Source of the DNA: Marsupella aquatica
Lineage: Eukaryota > Plantae > Marchantiophyta
Direction of reading: 5' to 3'
Assembly: GCA_973895155.1 (NCBI GenBank)
Contig: OZ316893.1
Coordinates: 496,860 to 560,859, forward strand
DNA: 64,000 nt
Shown here: positions 29,238-62,275 of the stretch, one piece after another
Numbering within the stretch: position 1 is the first letter of the stretch
Layout of the letters: each line of letters opens with the position of its first letter
Position numbers and translations under genes: made by a program
The notes under the pieces: generated by a model
Seen by the model: only the letters and a program-made list of their open reading frames with translations
Databases searched by the model: none
What the model was told of the DNA's origin: nothing

Positions 29238-31597
29238 CCTGGCCCATTCCGATTCCGGTCTATCAAGCGCCCCAGTAAACCATTTACTTAGTAGATGCCA
29301 GCACTTTATATGCAGGATTCAGAAGAATAGCCGTTCCGCCTCTACCATCGTCAGGAGCAGAGTAAAAGTGTTGATAGTTGGGCAAGATCGTGCGTAGGGC
29401 CAGATCCAACCAAAAGCTATCCGCCTTTACTTCCTGTAGAGCGAGAGCATCTAGGGGCAATTTTCAGAGAGGATGTCCATTTCATTACAACATTTTTCCG
29501 GTCAGGGTCACACAGACCGCAGACGTTCCAAGACGCAAAATTAAAGGGCGCCATCCATATATATGACACCACAAAAGGTATACCACCCACGGCTTAGCCT
29601 CTCATCCCAAGCTGAGCAGCACAATTTAAGCAGAGGGGATAGAACCAGCGGGAATTCCCGTTAAAATATCAGAAGAACCGGGTACCATGCCAGGGGAGGT
29701 GCTGCGAGATATAGCCACTGTCGTATCTACCTCCAGGGAAGAGCCCTCAGATTGCTTCTTGTGATCACGTTGCAGCTTACATCCAGGTGTCACCCATCCT
29801 CCCGCGTCCTGCAAGGTAGAATCAGGGATGAATTGTAAGGATTTCTGATTTTTTGCTTTCTTCTTTTCCTTCTCTTTTTTCTTATCTTCAGGCGGTGATC
29901 TTCTTGCCAGCTTTCGGGCTCTCTCCTTTTTTTGGGCGGTGCGGGAGATAAATCCCTCGTACTCAGAAACCTCCATGTCAAATGGAATCTCAGGGGTAGA
30001 ATGCTCATCCTCGGCCTCTACCATTTTGTTAGAAACACCAGCGTTTAAAAGCAAAGGCACTACTGGTTCAGCTTCTGGGGCACTAGGACTAGTTCCAGAA
30101 TGCAAGAAAGAAAGCTCAAGAGTAGCGACAGTGTTCAAAATAGGCTCGTCCCTGTTCATAGCTTGCAAGTCATGCAGCACTCCCGGGCCGGGATGGCATT
30201 CATGTCAGAAAAAAGATGAGCAGACGTTACTTGCAAATTCAATCCGTCAGTAGATTCGTCAATTTCCCTATCAATAGCAACTGCACGAGAATCCCCCTCA
30301 AGATCTTGAGAACTCCCAAAAAGCGCAAATTCTCCTTCCGCATTCATAGGTAGTCTTTGAGCCAATGGAGTGATACTCCTCCCCGTTGATAGGGGCAAGG
30401 TAGCAACGGTCGCAGGATGGCTTGGCTGATCTGAATTAAGGGCATCAGCCTCCAATGCAACAACAACCAATGGCTCAGTAGTCGCAGGCACCAGGGGAGT
30501 TGGCAGCTCCTCAGCAAGTTGAGTGGCTGCAGGCGCAGGCACCTCATTTACTCGACAGTCCCGGGCTAAATGGCCCTTCTTATTGCAGCTAAAGCAATGA
30601 AATGGAATATTCTTGAATATTACTGGTTGCCATATAGAAAGATCAGCCTTGATCTGAACCTCCACACTCAATGGCACCTCCCGCTTGGTATCCCAAATGT
30701 CACGTCGTAGGCTTCGGCCTTAACTCAGACTTGAGCTTAGACGGGCACATCCCTCGTAAATCTGAGGGTTCGGGCAGGAAGGGAAGCACGGAATGCACCT
30801 TATTATCGTAAACTAGCGCTAAGTGCGCATACTGCTAAATACGGACACCTCCTAGGTATGGTTTGTGTTCCGCCGCCGGAACGTACCTTAGTCGATAGCA
30901 GGATCGACCCCGGCTTAAGGGCTTCTAAGCCTTCGTGCTGTCCGCCTTCGATCCGGATTCGATGATACAGGTCCTCAACCCGTGCTCGCAACCACTTACC
31001 CGCAGGCTGCACCCTGTGCACGTCTCGGGTAGTGCGTTCGGCCCGGCGCTGCCACCCATATACGAGAAACCCACACACATATGCGCACACATGCATACAA
31101 TCTCGATTTACACGAAGGAAAAATGATGGGAAAGGATTTTACTACAAAGGGAACATATGCGTACACTTAGTTGACACGACAGCCCTGGAATGCACAGGTT
31201 CAAGGCCAAGGGTGCACACTACAACGGAGCCCGGCTCCGCACTCACCCGACGAGCTTAGTCCTACCCCCTCCCCTTGGTACTCTGTCATTCCCAGAGGTC
31301 GGGACTCCCCGCATATCCCGCGGATGTCCGACTCTGAAACTAAAAACCCCCCCCTTGCCTCTACCGAGGGGTGCACTAAATACTAAGAGCCGAGGAACGG
31401 GGTGTCCTCCCGCCGAAGATTCGCTGACCAAGGTCCTAACTAAGCTGACAGTCAGGCCGGAAAACGGCTATGTCTTATTAGAAGATCCTAATCTACGCAG
31501 GCTGGACAGCAAGGCAGCGCTGCTGTACCTAAGGTAGGTGCCTGTCCCAAGAGCCTGACTAAGCCAATCCTAATCCTAATCTATTCCTACTCCACCG

Positions 31598-34228
31598 CTA
31601 ATGCCTGGCACGCTTGCCAGAGCCGCCCGAATGGGAACGGCCATCCCGCTGCCTTCGAAGCCTGTCATTGTCCGCTTTGAGGAGCTGGACCTGGTCCAGC
31701 AGAGATTCGTTCTCTCGCCTCGCCGCGTCCGTCTCCTCTGCTGCCTCCTGACATGCCTCCTCCAGCTGCTGGGCGTCGCTCGTCAGTTTACTCGCCAGCT
31801 GGTCCTGCTTCTCAGCCTCGGTTTGGAGCCGCGCCATCTCGGCCTGCAGCGTGGCTATCTCCGTCGCGTCCCGCTGGGCTCGCTCCTCGGCCTCCTCCAA
31901 GTCTTTCTGCCAGGTGACAGCTTGTTTCTTCAAACTGTCAATCTGGTTCCGGAGTCGTGTAATCTCGGCCTCGTTCCCAGCTTTGGCCTGTTCGGCTAGG
32001 GCGGTAAGAGCGTACGCCTTTGCTAACAACTCATCGGCGGCTGCAACCTTGGGTCGTAGTTGCAGAAGCTCAGCCTCTTGAGCCGCCACTTCGTTCTTTA
32101 GGTACACGGACTCCACCCGGTACCGCTCTATCCTCTGAAGGGCCTCCGACTGGGCCCGCCCTGCCTTTACGGCGGCAACCAACTCCTGATTGAAGAAACA
32201 GGCTACCTTCCGGGCCATGAACTCCCCGGTATCCCGGGCAATTTGATGAGAGAAATCTCCCAGAAGCCCGTTCAGAAACGTACCCTGTACGAAGAGTTCC
32301 GGGTGGTCCAAGTTGTGCCTGTCCGGATTTGGGCACGGGCAGACATCAACACGCGCAGGGGCCGGGGCAGTGACGTCCAGCCCTGGGGACATAACGTTGG
32401 AAGGGGCTGGAGTGTCCTCCTGTAGCAATGTCCGGTTCTCCGGAATTGCCACTGGCGGGTCCTTGGGAGACCCGGGTTCGGGTAAGACCTCTGCCGTACC
32501 AACTTCTGTACTTAGCCCGGCTAGTTGGGTCGCATCAACGGTTGCGACGACCGACCCCTCCGGCGCCTCCTCGGTTACGATTACAGCTATTTGTGGAGGT
32601 GGGGTGGGTGAAGCTGGCGTGTCCACTGGACTTCGGGCCTCGGGTTGGGGCCGTCTCTCCAATGCCGGAAAAACCCACCTAGCTGGGACCAGCTTTGTAA
32701 CGTTGATGCGGGGAAGGGTTCGTCGATCAAACCGGGCGTACCACTCAAGAATGATTTCGATGTGGCTAGCGAAATACGCCTTCCCGCCAATGTACAGCGT
32801 CTTCCTTCGCCGCTCCATCTCTTCATGGAATTTCTTAGCGAAGTACGACGCCCATTTCCTAGGTCGATAGTTCTCGACCTGGATGACCTGGGCGGCGGAG
32901 ATCTCCCCCCGGGGTTCCATCATGTGGAGAGCGTACCTCTGGAACTCCAGCCGCTCAGCTATCTCGGGCATGAGGCAGGTCCTCATCACGAACCCGTTGT
33001 CTACTGATCCCTCTGAGGGAAAACTTGAAGATTGGTACTTGGCCCCCTTGCCACCGGGAGCCCGTGATTCGACTCGATGGTCACCTTCGGGTAACCCGAA
33101 GATCATCTTGAGCCGTTCTTCTGTGAGGGACATATTCCTTCCCCGCAGCCGAGTCTGTTGACGTACGTCGTCATAATTCTTGACGAATTCTGTCATGTCC
33201 TCCCCGTAGTACCTGCAAGTGTTCCAGGGGAGAGAGGCGAGGTGCTCAAATCCCTGAGTCTTCAGGTACACCGCATGCTTGGGATGGAGGATGTTGCTGT
33301 GAACGTTTTCCCCCATGCGATGCATCGTTACCTTGGCTACAGCTACCGTGGCCAACGGTAACCCGGATGCACTGGCGGATTCCTTCCTCTTCTTTCCCCG
33401 TGACTGACTCGGGGAAGGTGATACTTCCCCATCCTCCCGATCGGGCCTGGGGAGTGCCACTGCGGTTGGTAACGGGCTCGGGGCGGCCACGGTCACCATG
33501 TTGTCTGCTGGGGCCGCTTCTGGGGTCAGAGCAGGGGGTGGGGACGATATAGTGTCGGCCCCCCGAGCGCTTGTTCCTCTGGGCCGCCTGGTCAAGGGTG
33601 GGGGAGCCTCGTCGTCATCGCTAAGATCCACAGCGTTGATGACGGAGCGTACCTGTGCTGGCTGGGTGATAGGTGGTGGGGTTTGGCTAGGCTGCGGCTG
33701 AGGCTGAAGCTGAGGTTGCATGGGCACGGGTACGGGTACGGGCCCGGCTGAGTTGGTCATGTTGGTTGATGGCCGAGTTCCCATGAAGCTCTGTAGGTGC
33801 TGGTAGAAGTTCTCCGAAGCGAGTGCAGACGCCCTTGTCGAATGGTTGGTACTGGACTCGCCGTTAATGACAGCCCGAACCTGGGCAGGGATGTGGTCAA
33901 AGTGATGTCGCTGCAGGTCGATTGTACCCGGGATATTGAAGACCTCGTCCGGAAGCCGAAGCAATGCTTCCCAAAACCCGATATATTTGTCTCCGTTGAA
34001 GAAGTACCCAGATACCTCAGCTGGTCGGTAAAGCTCGCTCTGAGACGGGTAGTCAAAGTTAAGGACGTAGTGGTGTCGTCCTGCTAGGCGGATGGCTCTC
34101 TCGTATTCGCGTTCGATCTCGTATCGGCGCGGGTTGGCGTGTTTCAATGAATCGGCCAAGTGCCTTCCGGTAGATAGGAACTACGTCCAGAATCGAATGG
34201 CCGAGCTAGAGAGGATCGTGTGCGACAT
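31598..34228 (-). CDS. LTR-encoded protein, family 1 (~876 codons from ATG 34228; one TAG at 34181-34183, then 853 aa open): PMD-like core plus coiled coil
   Basis: The in-frame ATG gives MSHTILSSSAIRFWT*FLSTGRHLADS. Core GFEHLASLPW...EFVKNYD...TRLRGRNMSLTEERLKMIFGLPEG, Pro-rich linkers, a C-terminal heptad-rich region and a basic tail. Confidence 0.75.
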
Positions 34229-34329
34229 TCAGAGGAGATAGTAGTGGCGACCTAGAGAGAACGAGAGAGCTGGGGTCAAAGCTGGCGCGCGGACTGATGG
34301 ACTGGTGCACTACAAAGGGTTGGCTCCCC

Positions 34330-34336
34330 TTTTATA
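34330..34336 (-). promoter_or_regulatory. Candidate LTR TATA box, family 1
   Basis: TATAAAAGGGG on the minus strand, ~360 bp inside the LTR start and ~100 bp upstream of ATG 34228. Confidence 0.55.
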
Positions 34337-35124
34337 CTTTGAGGGCTTGTCGATCCCTGACGTCTCCTCGACGCCCATAGGTTGAACCGCTCACGCTTGT
34401 GGTGTACCGGCCACTCCGCCGGTCTGAGTCAGCGTGCGTCAGTGGCCGCTTCCTTAAGTTCGTTATACGGACCCGAGGGAGGGGCCCCTCCACGCTCGTA
34501 ACCCGGGTGTGCGAATAGCGACCCGCCGCCAGCCCGAACCTGAAGTCCCCCTTATTGCCTAATGATGTCCTACCCCTAATGATTACCTAAATACTGTCGT
34601 TATGCTAATAATAGCGGCCTAAGACCCACCTAACGCGCGTGCCGAGCGCAGTTAGACTGAATCACTCATTAACCGCCGTACCGGCGGCGTCACACCAAAG
34701 TACACAGGCCCTGTCGTGTGGATAAGTGCTCAGGTCGTCACCCTGAATATAGTGAAGAATGTCGCCCAAGGACGCAGCAAGCTTCCGACGACAAGGTTCA
34801 AGTAGCAATGCACCGAATGGAATCTCAATCCACACAGGCAATAAGGTATAAGATTCACTTCTGATGTCAAAGGAAGGATCCCAAGGGAAAGTGAATACAA
34901 ATTTTTGCTCCAAGAACCAGGGGGCACAAGCCAGTGCAAAATCTCGATGTTTGGGATTCCTGAATGCTACCATATAGAAGTTTTTCCCAATGAATTTGAC
35001 TTGCGAAACAGGCCAATTCATCTCAGAAACGAAGGTCTTCTCCACCCAGAACTTAAATGTGGACAGCATCGGTGCGCGATTAGTAAAATAACACATCATG
35101 GAGCAGTTATACAGTTTGGTCACC

Positions 35125-38100
35125 TGTCACTTGCCTATCCAACGATTAATGCGTGCCAACCGTACTTTTCCTTGCTTAAACCGTTGGTATCGTATTACGG
35201 GGTCGTGGAGGGACGCTATTTGGAGGATTTTCACACCTAAGGATGAGTATGTTTGATTCCGCTCCCGGAAGTGTACTTTTTGATCAAGTCTACCGACTGG
35301 TCTCTCCGTTTTTGATCAAGTCCAAGGGACTGGTCCTACCATCTACAACTCATGCCCACCGGGTGAGTGCTGTCACCACCCCCCTCCTCTTTTGGGCAAG
35401 CATACCAACATTTACAATAAGATTTGAACACTAGTGACAAGAGCAAATGTTTCCACAAGGACACCGACCACACACACTAGGGGAGGAAAACAAACAACAC
35501 AAGCAACAACAAGTGACACACGAAATATTGGAACCTCAAGCCAAATCCATATCTCTTGGTGTTTCCCGTAACACATGCAAGGACAACCCGGCCTCCTGCC
35601 GTCTGCCCAACTCCTGCCTCCCGGGACAAGTGCTACGTTCTCCACCTCACTACTCTGGCTTGAACTTCTCCTAATCGGTGCGCTACTCACAAAAGCTACT
35701 CCAAAGCCAAGTACTACGCTGAGTTCCCCCCCTCACTACTCTGGGGCTCTCCCCCTAAATACCAAAAAACACACCAAAGCACCCCTCACGGGGCCACAAC
35801 GAAGGCGGCTTACCCTAGCGGCGCCGCTAAACCCTTCACTAAGAAACCCCTAAACTAAAACCATGCGGCACACACATGCGTCTAAAAACCCTAAACCCTA
35901 AACTAACAATGGGGCCGACGGTGCCTTCGACGGTGCCCCAACGTTATTCCGTGAACCGTGAAATTGCAAGGAACCCCACAATGGCCGAAACTAGGCGCCC
36001 CTCCACTTGCACTTCTGAGTTCACCCCTGGATAGCTCTCCTCCTCCTGATCACGGATCACTTCAACCGCTCTCTAAACGGACATTGGACGACCAAGTTAT
36101 GACCGTTTCCGTATCCCGTAAACACAACTTCGCCGGGCCATAACCTGCTCATCCTGGCTCCGTTTGAGGAGCGCCGCCTCTTGTTGGAATCAGCTCCGTG
36201 AGCTCTTTCCAACAAGCCCGTGAGTGACCCCTCACAAAAAGTTGGAAAGTCCAGGGGCCGTACAACCACGTCCGTACGACCACTCTAATCCTCCTCCTCT
36301 TCACTCACGGTGCCCTGGCTTGAGCCCCGTGAGTGGGCCTCCTCATCACTCTCCACTGGAGTGAGTGCCACTTCACTTCTCTTCTTCTTTACCGGGGTAC
36401 TCCTTGTGCTAGTGCTCCCCTGCTTTCTCAAATTGGCCAAGGCCTGCCACGCTTTAATGTACCCCTCACCAATGGTGTCCTTCCATAGGGTAGCCTCTTC
36501 TCCGGACCGCAACTCCAACGGTAGAACTTGCCCTGTGGCCATGGGAGTCCCGGGGGTGACAGACCTGGGTGGCATCCCTGTACTGACCTGAGCCTCCCGT
36601 AAGGATTTCCGTACCTCCCGGAGCTTCTTCTCCAAGCCCTTGCTCTTCTCCTGACTCTTCTTGGCTCCATCCAACAAGGGCCCATACTTCTCACTAACCT
36701 CCTTCACCACCATCTCAATAGCCTGGGAGATCAAATCCGGAGAAAGTGTGGAGCTAGGAGTGCCGGGGCTCTTCCGTTTCCCCAGACTCAAGGCCTCACT
36801 CCTCTTTGCTCGTGTCTCAAAGGCGGCCACCTGACTCCGTAGTGCTCCCACCTGGTTTCTCCACTCCACCACTTCTCCAGAATTCTGCTTCTCTTTGGCC
36901 AATGCTTGTCTCAATGCTCCCACCTCTTCTGCTTCCTTGGCCTTGGTGGACAAGGCTCCCTTCAAGTTGGAGATCTCTACGTGAGCTTCTTGGAGAAGCT
37001 TAACCTTCTCATGAATGGTCCCCTCCTTGGCCTTGATCACCTCCTTCAGAGACAGGGTACTCTGCTCTAACGTCTCTACTCTGGCTGTGGTGTGCTTGAG
37101 AGAATCTCTCAATGCGTGGACTAGCTTGAGTCCCTCATGGACTCCCTCTCTGAAATCCCGTAGCTCTGCCAGGTAAACATCCGGAATGTTGTAGGCCAGG
37201 GGCTCTTTCGGATCTCCCACGAGTGATTCAAGCCACTCCAATGTGTAGTCCTCATCTTGGTTTTCTTCTCCTCTATCTTCATCCCCACCAGCCGACGATG
37301 ATTCCTCCGTGAGCTTCCCTATAACGGTAGTGGCAATACTCCGGATCTCCATGGTGAGAGATGATTCTGTGTCTTCCTGTCCTGGGGAACCAATCAACCC
37401 TTCTGCCCTGGCCAATACAAATGACCCCATCAAATGTACAGCCCCACCTGGTTTCACACTCCCGAGGTCAGCGGCCAACAGCTTCTTCAACCCGTAGTAC
37501 CACCATCCGTACACATGGGCTGGGTGGTTCTTGATGTCCATAGCTACCACGAAATGCTCTTCATTCACCACCCCTGATTGCACGTTGCCAAGGACCCGTT
37601 GATGAACCTTGGCCAGGAATCCCTTATACTCAACATCCTTGACAGCGGAAAGAGAGATGGCAGTGGTGGAGGTGGGATTAATCACCCAAGTGGCCACCAT
37701 CTTCAACGTGAGTTCTCCCCTGATGTGCCGAGGTGTGAATGAGAATTTCTGATTCTCCAGAAACAGCAGCCTAGCCAACTCTACATGGGGCACTACACGT
37801 TTGAGACATTCAAAGTAGATTCCCTCCGTTCGTAACTCCATCCCGGCCTCAATGTCCCAGCTCTTCCCCGGGGGGATGGTAATCTCCACCTTCATGAATT
37901 CTGTAACCCCGGTGGCTTGGAAAATATTCCGACAATCCTCCATCACCTTGGCGGAGGTCTTGGGATAAATTCGACGAAAAATCCTCCTACCCACCGGTGT
38001 GGAACCTGCTGCCAATCCCGTGCTCATCGTAGCTTCTCTCTCTTCTCTCTCCCTTGCAATCAAAGTCTCCACATAGTCACGGTAAGCAGCCTTGTATCTC

Positions 38101-39523
38101 CGAATGCGTGCCACACTGAACTCCGGTTGATCTAGCATTCATGCATCCCGAAATCAAATCCTCAATCACCAAATCCCGTCACCCGTAGCAATGTCAATTC
38201 CCTGGCCCGAAACAGCCCCCGCATCCCGATCAATCGATTACTCTCAATTCCCCCAGAAGCCACTCCGGGCTGCTGCCGCTAATGCCCGGAAGAATCAGGC
38301 CACCAAGCCCCACCAATCTACCATGAGAGAGAGCTTCAAAAATAATTAGGAGGTGAGAGCTTTCGGCAAGGTGTTGGGAGAGAGTTTTGAGTTTTGCTTT
38401 CGGCAAGGAGAAGGTCGTGCAAAAGAGGGAGAAAAGAAGGGAAGAAAAAAAAAGAAAAAAAATCCCCCTCGACACCTCCTTTCGCCTTGTGCCCCGGGCC
38501 CTCCTTTAATGGCCCTCCCCGGTGCCCTCTTTCGCCTGGCTCACGGGAGCCCTAAATGCCTTGGGCACGCAGCCCTATGGGCTCGCCCCGGCCACCTGCC
38601 ATCTCACTTTTCTCGCGGGAGTCCCGGCTGCGCTCTCGCCCCGATGCCCCCCTGCGCCACTCGCGGGAGCACTTAGTGCTCGGCTACTCGCGGTTCAAAC
38701 GGGGGATTTAATTCCCCCCCCGACAGCCCTCTTTCGCCTCACGGCCACCCCCCGTAGCGCCCTCTTTCGCCTGGCTCGCGGGAGCCCTAAATGCCCTGGG
38801 CATGCAGCCCTATGGGCTCACGGGAGGGTTTTAATACCCCCCCCTTTACTCCTCGGCTGCGGCCCGGCTGCCCTTGCCCTGCTTGCGGGAGCCCTTACCT
38901 GGGGATTCCACGTGGCGGCCCTAGGGCTGCCCCTTATGGGCCCTTAAGTGCTCGCCCTCTGCCAGGCCACTTAAGGGGTATTTAACCCCCCTCCGCGACC
39001 TTCCTGCACCGGCCTCCCTACTTGGTACTCGCGGTGCCCCTTAAGGGGGAATTTTAATTTCTCCCCCACCCTCGGCGCCTTGCTTCCTTCAGCTCGCGGG
39101 GCTCCCCTCAAACGGGGGATTTAATCCCCCCTTTTCTTCTCCTGAACGCGGCCCTATGCAGGGCTCGCGACAGCCTCCTCCCTGTCCAGCCCGGCTCCGG
39201 CTGCCCATAAAAAAAAACTTCCCCCTAATCACACTGCCGGGGTCACCTCTACTCAAAAACTTCCTTGCTCCCGGTCCTGTTTTATTTCTTCTTCCCACCA
39301 ACCTTGCTATTGAGTTCTCTAAAAATGGCCCTAAAATAATGGGGAGTCCCCCAAAGGTAGGGCCCTCCTCCCAACATAATTGCAGAACAATTAGGGGATA
39401 AAAATAAATACAGTTCTTCGATCACAGGTGATGAAAAAATGGTTATTTACAATGGTTATTTACACTGCGCGACACTCCGCGACCAAGTTATTCGTGATTT
39501 TATGTGACGGGGACCCCGTCACA
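35125..39523 (-). repeat. Family-2 3' LTR (4399 bp)
   Basis: On the minus strand it starts TGTGACG directly after the purine tract AAGAGAGGAG-CTA and ends GCAAGTGACA at 35125, where LINE ORF1 resumes. Its last 231 bp match the 5' LTR remnant. Confidence 0.8.
36285..38138 (-). CDS. LTR-encoded protein, family 2 (617 aa, open), with coiled-coil C-terminal half
   Basis: Uninterrupted ATG-initiated ORF wholly inside the 3' LTR, on the same strand as gag-pol. It has heptad-like LETLEQ/LKEVIKAKE stretches and NLS-like GKRK and PVKKKR motifs. Confidence 0.75.
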   Translation of the reverse strand: MLDQPEFSVARIRRYKAAYRDYVETLIAREREEREATMSTGLAAGSTPVGRRIFRRIYPKTSAKVMEDCRNIFQATGVTEFMKVEITIPPGKSWDIEAGMELRTEGIYFECLKRVVPHVELARLLFLENQKFSFTPRHIRGELTLKMVATWVINPTSTTAISLSAVKDVEYKGFLAKVHQRVLGNVQSGVVNEEHFVVAMDIKNHPAHVYGWWYYGLKKLLAADLGSVKPGGAVHLMGSFVLARAEGLIGSPGQEDTESSLTMEIRSIATTVIGKLTEESSSAGGDEDRGEENQDEDYTLEWLESLVGDPKEPLAYNIPDVYLAELRDFREGVHEGLKLVHALRDSLKHTTARVETLEQSTLSLKEVIKAKEGTIHEKVKLLQEAHVEISNLKGALSTKAKEAEEVGALRQALAKEKQNSGEVVEWRNQVGALRSQVAAFETRAKRSEALSLGKRKSPGTPSSTLSPDLISQAIEMVVKEVSEKYGPLLDGAKKSQEKSKGLEKKLREVRKSLREAQVSTGMPPRSVTPGTPMATGQVLPLELRSGEEATLWKDTIGEGYIKAWQALANLRKQGSTSTRSTPVKKKRSEVALTPVESDEEAHSRGSSQGTVSEEEED

Positions 39524-46373: not shown

Positions 46374-46467
46374 TGTGATGCCTAGACAGGAATCACTCGG
46401 CCAGTTAATTGGGTAAAGCAGGAAGGCACCCTAGGAACACCTTAGTATAGGGACAAAACAAGGAAAA

Positions 46468-46473
46468 TATAAA
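46468..46473 (+). promoter_or_regulatory. Candidate LTR TATA box, family 3
   Basis: AAAATATAAAC is conserved in copies A, B and C, ~95 bp inside the LTR start and ~280 bp upstream of the ORF ATG. Confidence 0.45.
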
Positions 46474-46749
46474 CCATTAGGGGCAACCATGGAACCCGGG
46501 CCAAGGCCGGAGGTAAGGACGCTGAGGGTGAAAACTTGATTAGGGTTAGGGCACGTTAAGCATCGGCGGCTAGGAAGGATCAACGGGAAGAAGGACCGGC
46601 AGAGGAGAGGGGTAAGGAGCGCTTGCAGGAGATGGTGGCTCATTTGCAAGCACGAACTAGGCAGACGACTACGGAAGGCCAACTACTGTCAGCTGCTTAG
46701 GCAAGCACTCGGGGAGAGAGTAGATACCGACGATCGACCTAAGGAGGGT

Positions 46750-50117: not shown

Positions 50118-51033
50118 CGGTGCAAGGGCGCCGTTCCTTTTAGGGAGGGCGGACGTGGAGGGAGGAGGCGTGAGTGAGCAGGGCAGGCGCGGATCTCCAA
50201 GTTTAGGATTAGGATCAGGACCAGGAGCGGCCCTGACACTTAGCTTAGTGGGATTGCGGTCCCACTGGTAGGAGCAACACTTGTGCTCCTGCCTTGCTGT
50301 ACATAGGTAGATTCGGGCAAGTAGATTACTGTTAAGTAGATTAGGCTTACGATGCAAAGAATGGCGGATCCACTACCAGGATAAGTACCTGGGCAGCGGG
50401 GAGCTCAGGGCCTCTTCTTTAGCAAGTTTTTAGTTTGCACCAGCCGGGCTGGGATCAAGTAGTACGAGAAGCTCTCGGTTAGTCATACATTGACCCTTGT
50501 GTATATTCATGTTTCCTCATGCCTAAGAGCTGAATAGAGTTGGCCTCACGGCTTAGTTCGCAGAGCTTGTGTATGAGATGTACTGTTTGTATGGCAAGTG
50601 CATGGTATGACTCAGTCAGAATGAGTCATTTTGCTATTTGTGTGTCGCATTAACTTGTGTGAAGAGTGCCCACATCAACCAAAAGGAAGGAAAGTAAGCA
50701 GGGGAGTGAGAGTTGGATGTGTCCAGCTGAGAGAGGTCTTAGCGGCTTAACCAAGCCTATTGGGGATCATTCCGGCGGCGGAATCCAAACATACCTAACA
50801 AGACGGAGGGGAAGACAGGGGAAGGCCTAGATTAGGCTGGCTACGTATCTCATGACCCGATGAAGGATCTGTCCAGTATATGTGTGTAAAATGTTAATAG
50901 TAGTAGTAGAAGGTTAGCAGCGTCCCATGCCGCTAAGCCGCGGAAACGGCCTCGCCAAGCGCGAAACCTGCGGGAATCGGCTTGAGCTGGGGGGTTTCTT
51001 GGGTTTAGGGAGCCATGGGACGCACCACATTTT

Positions 51034-51050
51034 TGGCGCTAGATGGAGGG
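51034..51050 (+). other. Primer-binding site, family 3 copy A
   Basis: TGGCGCTAGATGGAGGG, 4 nt after the LTR-terminal CA; tRNA not assigned. Confidence 0.75.
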
Positions 51051-51098
51051 GGCATTTCTTAAGCCATGAGATATGAAGTTAGAACGGAAGCGTAGGTA

Positions 51099-54000
51099 AT
51101 GATTGACCTTACGCCGAGGGAAGAAAGAGTGATTCAACGGGAGAGAGCTCGACTGCAGCAGCTCGCCGGGTGGCATGATACACAGCAACTGAGAGGGGCA
51201 GAAAGAGCTGGTAGCTCCAAAACTGGAAGTAGCGTCGAAGAAGACATACCAGAAGAAGAGTCGGTAAGGAGAAGTGAGTCTCCAACCGACATGGGGGAAC
51301 CAGAGGCACGGCCAGACGAGAGGCCAGGGACCAGATTGAGCCAGCGGTCGCGCATACATTACAAGGCATTTTATGGGAGAGGAGATGAGGATCCGGACGA
51401 ATGGTTGGATGATTTCGAGGGAACCGCTGCAGCAAATGGAGAATCGGCCATCAAGATGCAGATTCTTCCCGGCCTGTTCAAGGGTGAGGCTAGGCCTTGG
51501 TACAGAGCATTGGATGTGGAAGATCAAGCCATCTGGGATATCTTCAAAACACTCTTTGTTAAGGAGTTTCGACCCATTGGAACTTCAGAACTAGCAGTGC
51601 TGAAGTTGGGACAACTTCGGTTCAAGGAGAACAAATCCTTCAGGAAGTTCTTGCAACGCTTTCAGAAACTGGTAAGACGTACAAAGACCAATGCATCTGA
51701 AGGTATGCAACTTCAATGGTTGGTGAATGCTTTGCCACAGAAGATGAGTTTTGCAATTAGGAAGGAGAACCCTGAGACTTTAGCCGAAGCAATTAAGGAT
51801 ATTCAATTATACATTAATGCAGATATCACAAGCCGGAAGAAACAGCTTAAGTCTGAGAGTTCCTCATCAGAGGAGGGATCACCCCATAAGAAAAAAGATA
51901 AGAAGAAGAAACATTCTAAGAAGTATAGAAGTGATAAGTCAAGCTCGGATAGTGGGAGTAGCAAGAGTGAGTCATCTTCTAGTTCTGAAGAAGAAAAAAC
52001 TAGGAAAAGGAAGGGCAGAAGGAGAGGGAAGACGAAAGTCAAGCTGGAGGCTAAGCCACCAGATAACATCGTAGCCCTTACCGAGCAACTTAAGGCTATC
52101 ATTGCAGAGGTAAAACCGAAGAAGAAGGTAGTACAGGAGGATAGCTCTGTATGGTGTGCCTTATGTTATAAAACCGGACACCATAAAGATGCGTGTCCTA
52201 AGCTTAATACTAATCATGTTCGGCATGTGGCCGAGATCAGACCATGTCAGGGAGAAGTAGAGTACTTTTTAGGAGATGCCGCTGATAGTGTTTTCGGCAT
52301 CAGTGAGACTGGAGCACGAGACCTATCCAACAGACCTGCATCTCTATGGTCAGGGTTAAGGAACAATCCAGGAGAGATGTATCCTCGGATTATTCAGAAC
52401 CCGTCAGTACCTCCTAGGCCGAATGTGCAAAGATTTGCGGCGTGCTATAATTGTGGTCAACCTGGCCATTTTGCTAGAGAATGCCCGAATGCACGCAAAC
52501 AGGGTGATGGACAACCAGCTCAGCTATGTATGGGATGCCGACAAGAAGGTCATATGCTAGGGCAATGTTCTACTTGGTTGGCAGGCCTGGCCGCAAATCA
52601 TAAACTTTTGCCGGTCAAGATCTTACCGCCAGGTACTACCCCCGGAGGAGTTCAAATCAACCACATCGAACTAGGATGGCAAGTGGATGCCGAGGCAGAG
52701 TTCGTACCATCTGATGATGAGGCCGAAGCCCTATCAACCTTCTCAGAGGAGGATTTAGATCATGATTGCTACCGGGTCTCTACTCAATCTACCAGAAGGA
52801 AGGAAAGGTGGGATGGGCTGGCCAAAAATAAAGGGAAGGTTACGGAGGAAAAGATCGACTCTTCGTCAATATCAACAGAAGGAGAAGGGAGGGCTCCGGC
52901 AATACAGGTAAGCCATGAGCCCACCAGTGAACCCAATCCTTCACAAGATAGCGACTTCAATCGAGATCATCCTAAGTTGTTCTACCCCTCTGTTACGGCT
53001 AGTGTTAAGGAACAACTAAGAGAATTAGAAACCCTGGAGAATACCGAAGCCATTGCCAAGGATGTAAAACGAGCAAAAGCATTGTTCGCTTCGGAAGACC
53101 CAACAGCTGTGGAGACTAGCGTGGCAAAACTGGCCGAATCCAAGACGGAAACACCACCAGAGGAGAAGCCGATTGTTCCCTATGACCTGGCTAAAGATGT
53201 ACTAGAATCTAGAGTCTCGGCAACAGTAGGTCAACTATTGAAAAATAGCCCGTACTTCCGGAAGCAATTAAGGAAGGCTATTCTCGGCAAGCCGAGATTA
53301 CCCAAGGTAGCAACCAGATCCGACGTACTAATGATAGAAGAAGATCAAGGAGCCCCAACATTACCATTAATGATTCAAGGAGAATTATTACTATGGGTAC
53401 CCATCGATGGAGGATCAGGGGTATGTATTATGATTGATTCAACAGCAAAAGGGTGGGGTCTAACACCGGAGATGACTGGAAGAGTGTTGAACATGGCCAA
53501 TGGATATCAGGTCATTCCCACGGGAGTGTTAACCGGCATCAAGACAGAGATAGGAGGTATCTTCTTTAGCATTAACTATGTAGTAATGAAGCCGGTAAAT
53601 CCTACGTCATTCCGGCTATTGATTGGTAGGCCATGGCTGTACCTAGCCGAGGTAATAGAAGATTGGGGTAAAAAGTAGTTCACTTTCGGGACCCCCTCTA
53701 TCACGATATCCTGGGACACTAAGGATGACCGTAGGAAAAGCATAAGGGAAGTAGATGGGTACGACAGTGGACTGGAGTCAGCCGATGAAGTACGTTGGTT
53801 AGAATGCCTCACTGACCTAACCGAAGAAAGTGTCTTTGGACCAGAGGTACCCCCCAGCGGATTATGGCAAGAACCAATGGAAGGTGACTTGGAAGAAGAA
53901 GACGAAGAGGTCGAGGACTGCTTTACAATAGAATCCACCTTTTTAGCTGCAATTCCGGAGGAAGTAAAGGATGTAGACCAATTGGATGAAACGGCTAAGT

Positions 54001-55368
54001 GGGGAGCAGTAGCAGGGACAGTGGATTTTCTGCAGGCGTTGTGGCAGAGCCGGCAGGGTTCACAACGCCATCGATCATCGGCAAGGAATTAAATACCAAG
54101 GGATCGGCATACAAGCCGATTACGAGGGCAGAACAAATTGAGGCCCTATTAGAAGCCGAGAGAGCACAGCGGCCTGACTCTCAGGAGCAAGAGGTGGATG
54201 AGATGGACAGACACAATCCAGAGCCAAGGCAGGAAGGGGAGCCGACCACCAATTCAAAACCGAATAGACCGGCAAGGGGACAATCTATGGACACCAAGGA
54301 AGGGACCGACTCGGCTAGTCCAGCCGAGATTCCAGTTTATGGAGGTATGAGATTTTAGAGACTGGAAGCCGAACTGGACCCGAATTTGAAGAAGCAGATT
54401 AATATGATCCAAGCACGGCAATATCGGAAGCTCGACTTAGGAGAGGGAAGAGAACTGAACTTAGGGAGAAACCTAGCACCTGAGCTCGAGAAAGAGATCA
54501 GTGACTTATTGATTGAATTTCAGGATGTGTTTGCATGGAGTCACCAAGATCTAAAGGGAGTAGATCCAACACTAGGGGAACATCGAATTGATCTCATGTT
54601 AGGAGCCAAATCATTTCGACAACCAATTCGAAGGATGAACCCGAAGTATTCCCTGCTGGTCAAAACAGAAATCGACAAACTAGTGGAAGCTGGATTCATC
54701 ACTCCAGTCCTGCATTCAGACTGGGTGTCTCCAATTGTGATAGTTCCCAAGAAAGCTGGACCCGATGGTAAACCCAAGATCCGGGTTTGTCAGGATTACA
54801 GGAAGCTGAATGAAGCAACATTAAAAGACCATTTTCCTTTACCGTTTACTGATATGGTACTAGACATGGTAGCCAGTCATGAACTATATTCATTCATGGA
54901 TGGATACTCTGGTTATAACCAAATCAGGATTCGGCAGGAAGACCAAATCAAGACGGCCTTCATCACGGAATGGGGGATCTATGTCTTCAATCGTATGCCG
55001 TTTGGACTCTGCAACGCACCAGCTATGTTTCAACGATTAATGGTGAACATTTTTCATGATTACTTGAGAAAGTTCATGGAAATCTTCATTGATGACTTTG
55101 CAGTATTCGGGAAGGCATCGAAACATGCTAAATACCTCAGGAAAACCTTCATGAGATGTAGAGAGGTGGGTCTCAAGTTACACCCAGATAAATGTTTCTT
55201 TGCAGTAACCGAGGGGGTGCTACTAGGTCACAAGGTATCAAGGAAGGGCATTGAGATTGACAAAGGTAAGCTAGCAGTATGGCTAGATATCATGCAACCT
55301 AAGAACATAAAGGATGTAAGATCCTTCTTGGGATGCATTGGTTACTATCGCCGGTTCATCAAGGATTT
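51099..55368 (+). pseudogene. gag-pol: Family-3 gag-protease-RT, disrupted and truncated
   Basis: gag FYGRGDEDPDEWLDDF and CCHC knuckles (CYNCGQPGHFAREC); protease VPIDGGSGVCIM in the same ORF; stops at ~53676 and ~54356 plus a frame change; RT (KDHFPLPF, FMDGYSGYNQI, IFIDDF) in 54386-55375. Confidence 0.92.
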
Positions 55369-57502
55369 TCAATAGTTGACCTACTGTTGCCGAGACTCTA
55401 GATTCTAGTACATCTTTAGCCAGGTCATAGGGAACTATCAGTTTCTCCAGTGGTGTCTCTATCTTGGATTCGGCCTGTTTTTTCACGCTAGTCCCTACAG
55501 CCGTTGGATCTTCCAAAGCAAACAATGCTTTTGCTTGTTTCATATCCTTGGCTATGGCTTCAGTATTCTCCAGGGTTTCTAATTCTTGCAGTTGTTCCTT
55601 AACACTAGCCGTGATAGATGGGTAGAACAACTTAGGGTGGTCTCGATTGAAGTCGCTGTCCTGTGAAGGATTGGGCTCACTGGTGGGCTCATGGCTTACC
55701 TGTGTTGACGGTGCCCTTCCTTCTCCTTCCGTTGATGTTGACGAAGAGTCGATCTTTTCTTCCTGAACCTTCCCTTTATTTTTGGCCGGCCCATCCCACC
55801 TTTCCTTCCTTCTGGTTGATCGAGTAGAGACCCGGTAGCAATCACAATCCATATCCTCTTCTGAAAATGTTGATAGGGCCTCGGTCTCATCATCAGATGG
55901 TCCAAATTCTGCCTCGGCATCCACTTGCCATCCGAGTTCGATGTGGTTGATTTGAACTCCTCCTGGGGTAGTACCTGGCGGCAAGACCTTGACCGGCAAG
56001 AGCTTATGATTTGCGGCCAATCCCGCCAACCAAGTAGGACATTGTCCTAGCATGTGACCCTCCTGTCTACATCCCATACATAGCTGAGCTGGTTGTCCAT
56101 CACCTTGTTTGCGTGCATTCGGGCATTCTCTAGCAAAATGGCCAGGTTGACCACAATTATAGCATGCCGCAAATCTTTGCACATTCGGCCTAGGAGGTAC
56201 CGACGGATTCTGAATAATCCGAGGATACATCTCTCCTGGATTGTTCCTTAATCCTGACCAGAGAGATGCAGGTCGGTTGGATAGGTCTCGTGCTCCAGTC
56301 TCACTGATGCCGAAAACACTATCAGCGGCATCTCCTAGAAAGTACTCTACTTCTCCCTGACATGGTCTGATCTCGGCCACATGCCGAACATGATTAGTAT
56401 TAAGCTTAGGACACGCATCTTTATGGTGTCCGGTTTTATAACATAAGGCACACCATACAGAGCTATCCTCCTGCACTACCTTCTTCTTTGGTTTTACCTC
56501 TGCTATTATAGCTTTAAGATGCTCGGTAAGGGCTACGATGTTATCTGGTGGTTTAGCCTCCAGCTTGACTTTTGTCTTTCCTCTTCTTTTGCCCTTCCTT
56601 CTCCTAGTTTTTTCTTCTTCAGAACTAGAGGATGACTCACTCTTGCTACTTCCACTATCTGAGCTTGAGTTATCACTTCTTGACTTCTTAGAGTGTTTCT
56701 TTTTCTTATCCTTTTTCTTATGGGGTGATCCCTCCTCCGATGAGGAACTCTCAGACTTAAGTTGTTTCTTCCGGCTTGTGAACTCTGCATTAATGTATAA
56801 TTGAATATCTTTAATTGCCTCGGCTAAAGTCTTTGGGTTCTCCTTCCTAATTGCAAAACTCATCTTCTGTGGCAAAGCATTCACCAACCATTGAAGTTGC
56901 ATACCTTTAGATGCATTGGTCTTTGTACGTCTTACCAGTTTCTGAAAGCGTTGCAAGAACTTCCTGAAGGATTTGTTCTCCTTGAACCGAAGTCGTCCCC
57001 ATTTCAGCACTGCTAGTTCTGAAGTTCCAATGGGTCGAAACTCCTTAACAAAGAGTGTTTTGAAGATATCCCAGATGGCTTGATCTTCCACATCCAATGC
57101 TCTGTACCAAGGCCTAGCCTCACCCTTGAACAGGCCGGGAAGAATCTGCATCTTGATGGCCGATTCTCCATTTGCTGCAGCGGTTCCCTCGAAATCATCC
57201 AACCATTCGTCTGGATCCTCATCTCCTCTTCCATGAAATGCTTTGTAATGAATGCGCGACCGTTGGCTCAGTCTGGTCCCTGGCCTCCCGTCTGGCCGCC
57301 CCTCTAGTTCCCCCATGTCGGTTGGGTAAACGTTTCTTCCTACCGACTCTTCTTCTGGTATGTCTTCTTCGATGCCACTTCCAGCTTCGGAGCTACCAGC
57401 TCTTTCTGCTCCTCTCAGTCGCTGTGTATCATGCCACGAGTTGCTGCAGACGAGCTCTCTCCCGTTGAATCGCTCTTTCCTCCCTTGGCGTAGGTTCAGT
57501 CA
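55366..57502 (-). pseudogene. gag: Family-3 gag, copy B (5' frameshift, 3' truncated)
   Basis: Protein closely matches the copy A gag up to ATVGQLLK, then reads into antisense RT of copy A. Confidence 0.88.
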
Positions 57503-57550
57503 TTACCTACGTTTCTTTCCTAACTTCATATCTCACGGCTTAAGAAATGC

Positions 57551-57567
57551 CCCTCCATCTAGCGCCA
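57551..57567 (-). other. Primer-binding site, family 3 copy B
   Basis: TGGCGCTAGATGGAGGG on the minus strand, 4 nt from the LTR end. Confidence 0.75.
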
Positions 57568-57571: not shown

Positions 57572-60500
57572 TGTGGTGCGTCCCATGGCTCCCTAAACCC
57601 CAGAAACCCCCCTTCACAAGCCGATTCCCGCGGGTTCCGCGCTTGGCGAGGCCGTTTCCGTGGCTTAGTGGCATGGGACGCTGCTAACCTCCTTCTACTA
57701 CTACTATTAACATTTTACACACATATACTGGACAGATCCTTCATCGGGTCATGAGATACGTAGCCGGCCTAATCTAGGCCTTCCCTTGTCTTCCCCTCCG
57801 TCTTGTTAGGTATATTTGGATTCCGCCGCCGGAATGATCCCCAATAGGCTTGGTTAAGCCGCTAAGACCTCTCTCAGCTCGACACATCCAACTCTCACTC
57901 CCTTGCTTACTTTCCTTCCTCTATTAGTTGATGTGGGCACTCTTCACACAAGTTAATGCGACACACAAATAGCAAAATGACTCCTTCTGACTGAGTCATA
58001 CCATGCACTTGCCATACAAACAGTACATCTCATACACAAGCTCTGCAAACTAAGCCGTGAGGCCAACTCTATTCAGCTCTTAGGCATGAGGAAACATGAA
58101 TATACACAAGGGTCACTGTATGACTAACCAAGAGCTTCTCTTACTACTTGATCCCAGCCCGGCTGGTGCAACTAAAAACTTGCTAAAGAAGAGGCCCTGA
58201 GCTCCCCGCTGCCCAGGTACTTATCCTGGTAGTGGATTTGCCTAACTCCTTGCAGCGTAAGCTTAATCTACCTAACTGAATCTACCTATGTACAGCGAGG
58301 CAGGAGTACAAGTGTTGCTCTTACTAGTGGAACCGTAATCCCACTAAGCTAAGTGTCAGGGCCGCCTCCTGGTCCTGATCCTAATCCTAAACTTAGAGAT
58401 CTGAGCCCGCCCTGCCCACTCACGCCTCCTCCCTCCACGTCCGCCCTCCTTGAAAGGAGCGGCCTCCACCACCGTCATGGCAGCGGTGTCTATTCCTCAG
58501 TGGACGCCCCCAACGCTTCCACCTCAGCCAGTGCCATAGGTTCGTTCTCTGATAGATTACCTGCCCTTGACTGAGTCAACTCTCCATCGGCCTGACTGGG
58601 TCCACCCCCGGCAACGGCATCGGCTTCAACATCAGCCTCAGCTACGGCCTCAGCCACGGCTACGGCCTCCCCTGCACACTCAAGTGGCGGATTGGGTACC
58701 TCGGCTTTGTCATCCCCTTCTTCTAGGGTAGTTGGATCCTCCGCCGTAACCCTGCCTGAGGTCGGTGTTGGGTTTACCTCCTTGGTCACCACGGCTTGTG
58801 GAGCCGTATTACTCCTTGACCCTGAAGGTGTCCGCTTCTTCTTCTTTTCTGGTTCGGCAGCTGGCCCCTTCCCCTTCCCACTTACTTCCAGCACTAGTGC
58901 AAATGGCGCGGCTTGTCCTTTGGCCAGTACCACTCCTGGTAACTTAGTGGCCTCAATTTGAGTTGGCCCTGATGAAGCCAAGCACTTAAATACTGCGGCT
59001 TGTTTCTTCAGCCGCTCCGTTTGGTTGTCGGCTCGTCGTTGTAAGTTCTCTAGCTTCCGCGTGCTTTCCTCCAACTCTTCCTGCACGTCGTCCAGGTCCT
59101 TGCGCGTCTCCTCCAGCTCCTTTTGGGCTTCCTCCAATTCCTGTTTAAACGCAGCTCTCTCCTCCCGGGTCGCTCTTAACTCCTTGTCGAGCTCTGCAAT
59201 GATGACAGACTCCATCTGGTTCATCTTGGCGTAAGTCTGATCGAGCATATTGTCCTTCTCATGCAGGTCGGCCTTGAAGCTGGCCGTCAAGGACGCAAGC
59301 TCCTGCTGCAGCGCAATAATCCCTTGATAGGATTTCCCCAACTCGGCCTCCTTCTTCTCAAGGGTTCCGCGGATAACCTCGAGCTCCCCCTTCAATGCCC
59401 TTTCCCTTCTCTGGGTCTCCGCCCTGGCCCGGTTGTTGGCTGTTATGTGGGCCTCCTCTGCATCCCTCAGCTCTCGCTTCCACTTCTCCCGCTCCTTGAT
59501 CGAAACGGCCAACTCTCCTTGGGTTCGAGTCAGTTTATTCTCCATAATCCGATTATCAGACTGTGCGGTATCCAATTGGCCCTGCATGATATTTAGCTCA
59601 TGTCGCTTAATCTGCAGCTCATCTGGGCTTTCTTGGCCGCCCTCAGGTCTTTGATTTCGGCTTCCCTTGCCCTGAGCCGACAGATGACCTCGTCCTTCTT
59701 GGTTCTTTCCAAAGCCACCGCTTCTTCTAATTGGCGCTTCTCCAACATCTCCCTCTGAAAAAAGGGTCCTTGCTCCAACTCTTCCCCAAAGATGCTGAGC
59801 GCCAGCTCTCCACACATTTCCCCATACTCCATGGCTCTATTTTTAGCATAGGTGGAGGAAGTAAAAGTCATCAGCATCATCCACCGCGGCCTGTGCTCCC
59901 AAGCCGCCTTGCGGATCTCTTCTATTGTGGCTGGAGGGATGCTTCGTTTTTTTGCAAGCCGCCTGATGTCCTCTGGCCATTCTTCTCCTGGTAAATCCTT
60001 TTCCCTAGCCAGGGCTGCCTCCTCTTCCTCCCTGATTTGCTCCTGAAATTCCTGCGCCGTTTGTTTTATGCCGTCAAAGCTCGGGGGAGCGACATCTGGT
60101 GGGGGAGACTCGGGGCTGCTCTGCTGGCTCGGGTCTCCTCGAACTACTCTTGGGAGCGTGGGGATGAACCGGCCACAGGTCCTTACTCCTGGAACATGAT
60201 GATCTGACCCGTAGACGGAGTCATCATTATTGTAGTCCTCTACCGCCTCCTCCTCGGCTTGGACTACCGGCTTCTCCAGCTGTTCTCCTGGTTTTGTTGT
60301 GAACACGGCTTCACCTCTCATCGGTCTTGGTTCCTCCTCCGGCTTCCGTGTTGATCTCTTGTTCTCCTTGTCGTGGCCGGGAGCTACGGCCTGCTTCTCC
60401 TCGGCTTCGGGACTTGAGGCTCCGACATACATCCGGACTCCCGGCTCGTGTTCCGGCCTCCTTCTCTCCTTGACCCCAGTAAAGGGGTTTTCCCTTGTAA

Positions 60501-62275
60501 GCCGGCTTAGGCCCACCTCTGGAGCAGTGTCCTGCATTGGTGTCGTTGCCGTTGCCGTTCTCTTTTCCTTCTCCAGTAATTTCAGCAGATTTTGCATGCC
60601 TGGTTGCTGCATCGGCAAGTCCTCTGTCCTTGGCCTAAACACCTGCTCGATTGTAGGACTGTCGGGCGGGTTGGGTTTCTCCGTTGCCGGCCTCTGCTCT
60701 GGGACCTCCTCCGGTGCTCTTGCCGATAGAGGAAGTACTGGGGCAAAGATTTGACTTCTGGCATACAGACACAACAGCGGCATGTGATAGCCAAGCCGGG
60801 ACACGCTTCCCATGCCGATTACCTGCTGTTCCTCCTTCAAGATCTTCTTCAGTTGGTTGAGGAGGTACCCGTTGTAATCCCGGCTTGGGTCTGGCCTTTC
60901 TGCCAGGTAGACCTGAGCCTTGTCGATCTCTGCCCTCGGCAAGTTATAGTGCATGGTTACCCGCAAGAAATCGATCATCTCTCCGATGTGCGGGTTGGTG
61001 CAGGTGTTCCGGAAGAAGCCATTCTTTGTTGATGGTCCTGGGAACGACCGAAACTCCTTGTCAGGTAAGGTCTTCCTGGTATCAACCTTGGTCTTATTAC
61101 CCATCGGCAAGCCAAACACTTCAGCAATCACCCAGGGAGTGAGATAGAATTCCTTCCCATACACCCTTGTGGAATTGGTCTCGAACTCCCATGATCCCAC
61201 GAATTCTAACAAGTCTGAGTCCGGCACCTCCGGCTTCAGCCATGGTAATCTTACGAAGGCTTCCAAGCCGGATCCGGCCATGAAGCCTTGGTACTTCTTG
61301 GTCTGCATAGCTGTAAAGCATGCATCCTCCTCCCGTGCAAAGTGTAATTGCACTTCCTCCGGTAGGGTCGCCGCCCAGCCTTTCCAGGTGTCATCGTTTG
61401 TTGGAATGGCATTGATGGGGTCGACCTCCTCCTCCTCGGCTTCTCTCTGCCTCCTGCTCTGTTGTCCTGCTGGCTTCTTTGGTGCCGCCGACCTCATTCT
61501 TTTTGCCGGGGTGGCCTCTTCGTTGTTGTTCCCCTTCCTCTTCATCTCTGCTCCCGTGGATGTCTCTCCTAGCACGGTTGCCTTTGTCCACCCCTCCGTG
61601 CTACCCTTCAACTCCCAGTGTATGTTGTTGCAGCGTTTGATGGCTTCTCGGATGCCGACGACTCTATCTTCGCAAAATAGCAGGTCGTCTAGCTCGTTGC
61701 CAGTAGGCGTCCATAGGAATTCAGCCTTGATGAGTTCTCCTCCTAAGAAAGTAGCTTTCTGCAGCTCCCACAATCGGGCGAGCTCCTGCCATTCTCGAGC
61801 TGCTCTCTCCGATTCTTCGTCCTCATAAGTCCCAATGTACTCAGTTGCCCGTTCGAACAGGCATCCCCAAAAATGTGCCGCTTGATTGACGTTGCTCATA
61901 CCCTTCTCGAGTTGATAGTCGGTATCTATTCCCACCCTGAGCGCTTGCCTAAGCAGTTGACAGTAGTTGGCCGCCCGTAGTCGCCTGCCTAGTGCGTGCT
62001 TGCAAATGAGCCACTACTCCTCGCGAGCGGTCCTTACCCCTCTCCTCCTAAGGTTCTCCCTCCCGTTGGTTACCCCTAGCCACTGGCACTTAGTGTGCCC
62101 TAACCCTAATCGTATTCTCTCCCCTGGCATCGTTACTTCCTGCCTCGGCTCGGGTTCCATAGTCACCCTTAATTGTTTATATTTTCCTTATTTATGTAAC
62201 TATACTAAGGTGTTTCTAGGGTACACTTCCCTTTTCCCCTTAAACTAGCCCAGTGATTCCTGGCTAGGCATCACA
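57572..62275 (-). repeat. Family-3 5' LTR, copy B (4704 bp)
   Basis: Minus-strand termini TGTGATG...CACCACA; homologous to the copy A LTR. Confidence 0.85.
58490..61899 (-). pseudogene. LTR-encoded protein, family 3 copy B (~1135 aa with a single frameshift near 59620)
   Basis: ORFs 59593-61935 and 58490-59815 join at AAKKAQ/DELQIKRH by comparison with copies A and C. Confidence 0.85.

Follow-up and report, generated by a model that had tools for sequence, protein, structure and literature searches.

Putative genes within the long terminal repeats of Athila-like retrotransposons in the liverwort Marsupella aquatica

Three families of long terminal repeats (LTRs), here termed F1, F2 and F3, are found in a 64,000-nt stretch of Marsupella aquatica DNA (contig OZ316893.1, 496,860-560,859, forward strand; the whole stretch is termed the window, and positions below are window positions). 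Each appears to hold a long open reading frame (ORF). The location of this gene inside the LTR is close to certain for F1 and F3, and probable for the 4399-bp LTR of F2. By sequence, the F2 and F3 elements classify as Athila-like Ty3/gypsy retrotransposons, and the LTR-borne protein has a predicted fold related to those of the VANC and PMD proteins. LTRs of plant elements are taken to be non-coding, and what the extra ORFs of Athila, Ogre and Retand elements do has long been an open question. The original prediction for this DNA knew of no comparable description in plants, and no plant LTR holding a whole conserved gene was found in the literature searched here, most subscription papers being outside the search. 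The kind of element and the domain superfamily are both known; the arrangement was not found described for plants, and the structural link to VANC is new.

Location of the genes inside the LTRs

The window consists of nested transposons, whose anatomy in the F1-F3 region was established with Pfam and self-BLAST. A long interspersed nuclear element (LINE; 28059-35124, minus strand) is split by insertions of F1 and F2. The 5' LTR of F2 is cut by the insertion of an F3 copy, F3A, which abuts an inverted second copy, F3B, head-to-head at ~55370. Copy evidence comes from contigs of four public runs mapped on 30400-46142, two of them (X3 and X4) also on 46330-55300, with depth summed over contigs. 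The coordinates first proposed hold on re-check, as do the LTR lengths (3997, 4399 and 4656/4704 bp) and the TGTGA...CA termini.

The F3 family has the following features, where PBS is primer binding site, PR protease and RT reverse transcriptase.

46374-51029, plus strand: 5' LTR of F3A, 4656 bp, with TATAAA at LTR position 95 and a palindrome at 50770-50783
46750-50117, plus strand: LTR gene of F3A, broken by two stops and one frameshift with a deletion
51034-51050, plus strand: PBS-like tract of F3A, which we take to be of the Asn type
51096-55375, plus strand: gag-PR and RT of F3A, truncated where it meets the inverted F3B
55366-57567, minus strand: PBS-like tract and gag of F3B, truncated
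57572-62275, minus strand: 5' LTR of F3B, 4704 bp, with the palindrome at 57821-57834
58490-61899, minus strand: LTR gene of F3B, ~1136 codons long, interrupted by one frameshift near 59620 and carrying the shared domain at 60715-61380
22947-26077, minus strand: F3C, a third F3 LTR of which the first 3.1 kb is present; its gene, with an ATG at 25702 and two stops, is truncated
27681-27748, plus strand: 68-bp fragment of the F3 LTR start

The F3A and F3B LTRs are 85-87% identical. Both run from TGTGA to CCACA and are followed by four T residues, the PBS-like tract and gag. The TGTGA start is present at four places, each with a flank of its own, and both complete LTRs end at the PBS. Depth over the LTR exceeds that over the internal region 5.2-fold in X3 and 4.4-fold in X4, with the drop exactly at the PBS. 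Once the bin that straddles this point is excluded, each of the 15 LTR bins is deeper than each of the 14 internal bins in X3 and X4 alike, and the gene region matches the remainder of the LTR in depth. Thus, the fixed start with its four flanks, the end at the PBS, the lack of an internal repeat and the depth step place the F3 gene inside the LTR. Since the stretch from the 5' end to the PBS is the LTR, every insertion has to bring two copies of the gene, and one of them stays behind in a solo LTR. The accessory gene had been predicted to be duplicated with the LTR and to survive solo recombination, and both the start-to-PBS position in F3 and the unit delimited in F1 by its target site duplication (TSD) support this. 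A composite of short LTR, ORF and short LTR was rejected for all three units, which are without terminal direct repeats.

At 55366-55375, the head-to-head junction joins F3A, cut in RT, to the inverted F3B, cut in gag. The event that formed it is likely to have removed both 3' halves as well as the remainder of the F2 5' LTR.

F1 is present as a solo LTR.

30698-34694, minus strand: F1 solo LTR, 3997 bp, within the LINE, with TGTGA..TGACA ends and flanking CCAAA
31598-34228, minus strand: F1 LTR gene, whose 876 codons, counted from the upstream ATG, include an in-frame stop at codon 16
32723-33376, minus strand: shared domain of ~210 amino acids, whose predicted model matches VANC21
34331-34336, minus strand: TATAAA, a putative promoter ~105 bp upstream of the F1 ATG and the sole TATA(A/T)A in the F1 LTR
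30868-30881, no strand: palindrome TTCCG-N4-CGGAA near the F1 LTR 3' end

The CCAAA sequence forms a 5-bp TSD at 30693-30697 and 34695-34699. The empty site, a joint from 30692 to 34695 that skips 4002 bp (3997 + 5), is found in all four runs. The TSD, the empty site and a 3' motif common to the families therefore place the F1 gene inside an LTR, and F1 is a survivor of solo-LTR formation in which the gene has been retained. The window has no gag-pol belonging to F1. Evidence for an F1 PBS is weak: among the loose ends listed, one mixed loose end of four contigs shows a T run followed by TGG. The F1 start also forms a hairpin.

F2 retains its 3' LTR and internal region. PPT denotes polypurine tract, RH RNase H and INT integrase.

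35125-39523, minus strand: F2 3' LTR, 4399 bp, TGTGA..TGACA, its 5' boundary deduced from the PPT and TGTGA
36285-38138, minus strand: F2 LTR gene, an intact 617-codon ORF with a C-terminal coil-like region
35257-35270, no strand: palindrome in the F2 3' LTR
39524-39536, minus strand: F2 PPT; the pol frame crosses it and ends 24 bp within the LTR
39500-44152, minus strand: F2 pol, 1550 codons, PR-RT-RH-INT, with no second RNase H and no chromodomain match
44094-45913, minus strand: F2 gag, in two frames
46106-46123, minus strand: F2 PBS-like tract, presumably of the Asp type, 19 nt from the LTR end
46143-46373, minus strand: last 231 bp of the F2 5' LTR, truncated by the F3A insertion, with the palindrome at 46275-46288

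The inferred length of F2 is 15.4 kb. That its LTR ends at 35125 follows from a twin sequence, 35125-35355 matching 46143-46373 over 231 bp at 99%. The ratio of ORF-region to internal depth is 2.7, 1.4, 3.6 and 2.4 in the four runs. In long single contigs of a dominant F2 subfamily, the ORF stands at about 2.2 times the internal depth (1599 versus 686-724 in X3; 6012-6330 versus 2754 in X4). The final codons of pol fall within the LTR start at 39503-39523 (minus strand), which forms a near-perfect 21-bp palindrome. The GC-rich 5' part of the LTR, at 38430-39480, has dispersed repeats (61 bp at 95%) and is rare among run contigs; it is likely to be a fast-changing regulatory region.

The three families share a feature that the original prediction had not seen. 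It had reported no obvious DNA similarity beyond the termini; the palindrome TTCCG-N4-CGGAA, together with a conserved flank, is in fact common to all three and sits 146-263 bp before the 3' end in five LTR ends. It has five matches in the window, all in LTR ends, and none in 100 shuffles. The sole TATA(A/T)A of the F1 and F3 LTRs is found upstream of the ORF, at LTR positions 359 and 95. The F2 and F3 ORFs lie on the gag-pol strand as described, and all LTR ORFs are sense relative to the TGTGA start. Other claims stand in part. Long ORFs had been proposed for each family: the 617 codons of F2 are intact, the 876 codons of F1 include the stop at codon 16, and the F3 copies are broken at differing places, with none open over 1135 codons. 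LTR boundaries had been said to be fixed by three kinds of evidence, and the TSD and empty site of F1 and the PBS of F3 do fix them; the PPT-bounded 5' end of the F2 LTR is the weakest boundary of the three families.

The encoded protein and the lineage of the elements

The F1 and F3 proteins are homologous over ~185-210 amino acids at 28% identity (E ~1e-15), at a distance where the DNA no longer aligns. The F1 protein displays, in order, an N-terminal domain, a Pro-rich linker, the VANC-like domain and a C-terminal coiled coil. From stop to stop its ORF has 860 codons, and 876 codons require read-through of the in-frame stop at codon 16. A 906-amino-acid homologue (P0191) matches the N-terminus, domain and coil of F1, and its alignment begins at F1 residue 8-13; the upstream start is therefore likely to be real and the present F1 copy broken. 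The proteins of all three families have C-terminal coil-like regions, with weak coil-type Pfam matches, and basic runs resembling nuclear localization signals (NLS). An env-like membrane protein was rejected, as there is no hydrophobic segment (maximum Kyte-Doolittle value, KD19, 1.28).

The F3 gene is under purifying selection. Ratios of non-synonymous to synonymous divergence (dN/dS) were calculated pairwise between F3 copies by the Nei-Gojobori method (NG86), with gapped and stop codons skipped. They are 0.09 (confidence interval 0.04-0.17), 0.10 and 0.12 in the domain, 0.14-0.17 in the N-terminus, 0.24-0.33 in the linker and 0.31-0.47 in the coil. Among controls, gag gives 0.16, and the domain read in shifted frames 1.5-1.8. 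Ratios near 1 would have spoken against the original prediction; those across the F3 ORF copies are 0.09-0.47.

A domain profile built from four window sequences finds 69 relatives among 1.84 billion representatives. Four of the ten relatives looked up have an organism name, and all four are from liverworts (three Calypogeia fissa, one Riccia sorocarpa). Word-index searches yielded no homologue for the F1 domain. Viral contigs showed no match for pol or the domain, nor did the first metagenome scan. In 41 domain-family members, Pfam Transposase_32 (PF20167) appears below cut-off in three. Two relatives, P0169 and P0177, are gene models fused to a DDE_Tnp_4 fragment, a hint of a DNA-transposon context in Riccia.

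An AlphaFold model of the F1 domain from a 41-row alignment has a mean predicted local distance difference test score (pLDDT) of 92.7 and a predicted template modelling score (pTM) of 0.88. Foldseek ranks VANC21, in complex with its target DNA, first among matches in the Protein Data Bank (PDB), with a template modelling (TM) score of 0.55, probability 0.95 and E 0.073, the next rows having TM scores of at most 0.18. VIA-align, run over 48,161 chains, also places VANC21 at the top (Z 8.0-8.1, root mean square deviation 4.3, 197 aligned residues, 10% identity; next Z 2.4). A search of BFVD folds with the domain model gave nothing at E<=0.001. ESM atlas leads are DUF1985 (0.90) and PMD (0.89) for F3, and ATHILA ORF1 and Transposase_32 (0.86, a lead only) for the N-terminal part of F2. 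On these models, a VANC/PMD-type fold is probable for the domain. Read as one family with a predicted fold of VANC/PMD/Athila-ORF1 type, the LTR genes are tied to the extra ORFs of Ogre, Tat and Athila elements, not to retroviral genes.

Between F2 and F3, the RTs share 69% identity. Their identity to angiosperm rows is 44-52%, and the nearest named relatives, at 63-66%, are from Riccia. In a quick tree of 101 rows (those with at least 230 aligned residues, out of 122, with no REXdb references), they cluster with metagenome proteins and Riccia sorocarpa (SH-aLRT, a likelihood-based branch support, 98). This cluster is sister to the angiosperm rows, two of which carry Transposase_32 (PF20167). 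The elements resemble Athila more than Tat or Phygy in lacking a second RNase H (aRH), in the 5-bp TSD (F1 only) and in the putative PBS types, Athila being described with a PBS of Asp/Asn type (PMC6317226). The window itself has no tRNA gene to set beside the PBS-like tracts.

Of 80 metagenome loci, one (L038) falls in the F2/F3 RT clade, with 66% RT-RH identity. Behind pol it has a 606-amino-acid sense ORF that carries the domain (15.4 bits versus -1.3 for the best shuffle). At L038:2313-4978, a purine tract with TGT and a TATA box precede this ORF, and CGGAA-type words are repeated. The contig ends short of its LTR.

Proposed function, rival readings and known systems

The reading favoured here, with moderate confidence, is that Athila-like elements carry in their LTRs a gene of VANC/PMD fold for a nuclear DNA-binding factor that would act on the elements' own LTRs by anti-silencing or activation. 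From the models, the protein is likely to bind DNA; an anti-silencing or self-activating role, taken alone, is about evenly balanced. With a TATA box near its 5' end, any LTR, be it 5', 3' or solo, would be able to transcribe the gene by itself. Two routes to genomic RNA would then be conceivable: a second promoter close to the conserved palindrome, with the gene in U3, or read-through, with the gene in R/U5. The coiled coil likely dimerises the protein. Since the PPT abuts the pol stop, the LTR may have acquired a copied Athila-type extra-ORF region: a plus-strand priming site directly behind pol would cause a downstream ORF to be copied as part of the LTR. Over the initial two thirds of the ORF, F3A and F3B show a synonymous divergence (dS) of 0.41-0.48, against 0.22 in gag, a weak hint that ORF and gag may have been inherited from opposite RNA ends. 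More tentatively, a bryophyte Athila-like lineage may have a self-contained LTR anti-silencing gene, its many solo LTRs forming a dispersed, amplifying family that would keep element chromatin open.

Several observations weigh against this reading. F1 and all three F3 copies in the window are broken, and no complete two-LTR element occurs in the run contigs or among the 80 metagenome loci. Depth summed over contigs does not measure the number of copies, and the source sample may itself be among the runs. Pfam gives no DUF1985 or PMD match in the 41 domain-family members. The VANC21 match is at 10% identity, with a Z of 8 that is borderline by VIA-align's own note, and a common fold is no demonstration of function. 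No clear VANC-type motif array was found, the top 7-9-mers of the non-coding LTR parts being not clearly above shuffles. The F2 protein is not matched by the F1/F3 domain profile (-2.8 bits), has no homologue in the word-index search, and its N-terminus gives a poor single-sequence model (pLDDT 35).

Further difficulties concern the extent of the F2 LTR, and they raise the question of whether F2 is an ordinary Athila-type element. Only 231 bp of its LTR has a twin in the window, and a second purine tract followed by TG, at 35393-35378, could set an LTR of 254 bp. The ORF would then be present once per element, its extra depth would come from non-autonomous copies, and only the F1 and F3 LTRs would be coding. 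The PBS also lies 19 nt off the LTR end. Two bins at 38275-39324 have only 0.15, 0.03, 0.33 and 0.21 of the F2 internal depth in the four runs; with depth so low, most F2 copies must differ in the 5' 1.1 kb of the LTR. That this part is rare among copies suits the short LTR, as does the lack of detectable homology between the F2 protein and those of F1 and F3. The inner candidate, however, starts with TGGTG and is a poorer fit to the TGACA end, whereas the TGTGA start mirrors that end and the F1 and F3 starts. X3 and X4 show no depth step at 35378, and the ORF contigs stand at the higher depth given above. An ordinary F2 is considered unlikely.

The LTR-borne gene could be accepted and its protein act elsewhere, after transcription or at integration (in the particle, in tethering to RNA or chromatin through the coiled coil, or in target choice). 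Long coiled coils in all three proteins and the lack of clear motif arrays are consistent with such a role, as is the fact that the extra ORFs of Athila and Retand are described without proven function (PMC7264820, PMC11963269). It is nevertheless doubtful: the sole structural match is a DNA-bound anti-silencing protein, and both the TATA box and the NLS-like runs are what a nuclear factor expressed on its own would have. Far less probable is that the 4-kb units are not LTRs at all; each would then be a separate cassette that is non-autonomous, or a gene captured from the host, with ORFs as decaying cargo. The absence of an F1 gag-pol from the window and the broken F1 and F3 copies would suit a cassette, but a PBS adjoins two F3 copies with a depth step at that point, TG..CA ends are accompanied by a 5-bp TSD, purifying selection is strong, and the protein is conserved between families whose DNA does not align.

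In mouse mammary tumour virus (MMTV) sag and lentiviral nef, coding sequence is likewise duplicated with the LTR; these are retroviral immune-related proteins, with LTRs of 0.6-1.3 kb, and are unrelated to the proteins of F1-F3. Among plant elements, the likeness to Athila lies in the PR-RT-RH-INT order, the lack of aRH and chromodomain, the 5-bp TSD and the large size. The Athila extra ORF is placed between pol and the 3' LTR (PMC7264820), whereas here it lies inside the LTR, and so occurs twice per element and in solo LTRs; the LTR-borne proteins also differ in having no transmembrane segment. The Pfam families of the Athila extra ORF are ATHILA ORF-1 (PF03078) and Transposase_32 (PF20167). 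Rice Retrosat2 combines an extra ORF0 with LTRs of more than 3.2 kb that have a TATA close to their 5' end (PMC3485330), but ORF0 is described as lying upstream of gag-pol and the LTRs are described as regulatory (PMC3485330). Phygy, a non-chromoviral clade of bryophytes, is described with a 4-bp NCGN TSD, a Trp PBS, a size of 7.7-10 kb and no extra ORF (PMC6317226). The present elements have a 5-bp TSD, an inferred 15.4 kb (F2) and an extra ORF.

VANC21, a DUF1985 protein of VANDAL21, a Mutator-like DNA transposon of Arabidopsis, resembles the F1 domain in predicted fold over ~197 residues. VANC proteins are accessory proteins encoded by transposable elements, with variable regions and a coiled coil, and are described as dicot-specific (PMC13547354). 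They bind DNA motifs of their own elements and remove methylation (PMC5735166). The differences are the 10% identity, the setting in Gypsy LTRs of a liverwort rather than in a VANDAL/Mutator DNA transposon, and the target motifs, which are dense there, whereas here there is one conserved palindrome per LTR. PMD and DUF1985 are reported to be structurally alike, and PMD-C proteins of similar structure to oppose Polycomb silencing (bioRxiv 2024.09.27.615353). The Gypsy-borne PMD-A (PMC5418596), found in Ogre, and the host MAIN/MAIL1 proteins are reported to belong to the same structural superfamily, in line with the PMD lead for F3. Reports of these PMDs, however, come from angiosperms and describe them as extra ORFs of the internal region, and no Pfam PMD match was obtained here.

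If the genes lie in the LTRs, solo-LTR recombination, the host's main deletion route, would retain a gene of 600-1100 codons instead of removing it. The match to the VANC21 fold suggests a concrete function, namely that the protein may bind and de-silence cognate LTRs; if true, this would be the first anti-silencing factor of a plant LTR retrotransposon. The finding bears on whether PMD originated in Gypsy elements or host genes (PMC5418596). Perhaps the VANC/PMD fold was present in Gypsy elements before the split of bryophytes and vascular plants, which would favour a retrotransposon origin of MAIN/MAIL1 and VANC. Genome annotation is likely to list coding LTRs among host genes (the domain relatives include three 'unnamed protein products' from Calypogeia), and LTR finders with short length limits may miss them.

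Other features of the window

CACTA/En-Spm genes with several exons are found at 811-8430 (plus strand), with Transposase_21, DUF4218, DUF4216 and Transposase_24. The observed/expected ratio of CpG is 0.90 in F1, 0.63-0.67 in F2 and F3 and 0.34 in the CACTA region, a strong depletion; these values are without clear interpretation. A methyltransferase frame of 232 codons, with a Pfam MTS match and no evident intron, lies at 10726-11424 (minus strand) and is presumably HemK2/N6AMT1-like. Strand-skewed tandem arrays with periods of 122, 111, 218, 196, 214 and 359 bp occupy 16043-22720 and show partial duplication at ~4 kb spacing. Beyond the F3B start, a tandem repeat with a 21-bp unit extends from 62317 to 62534.

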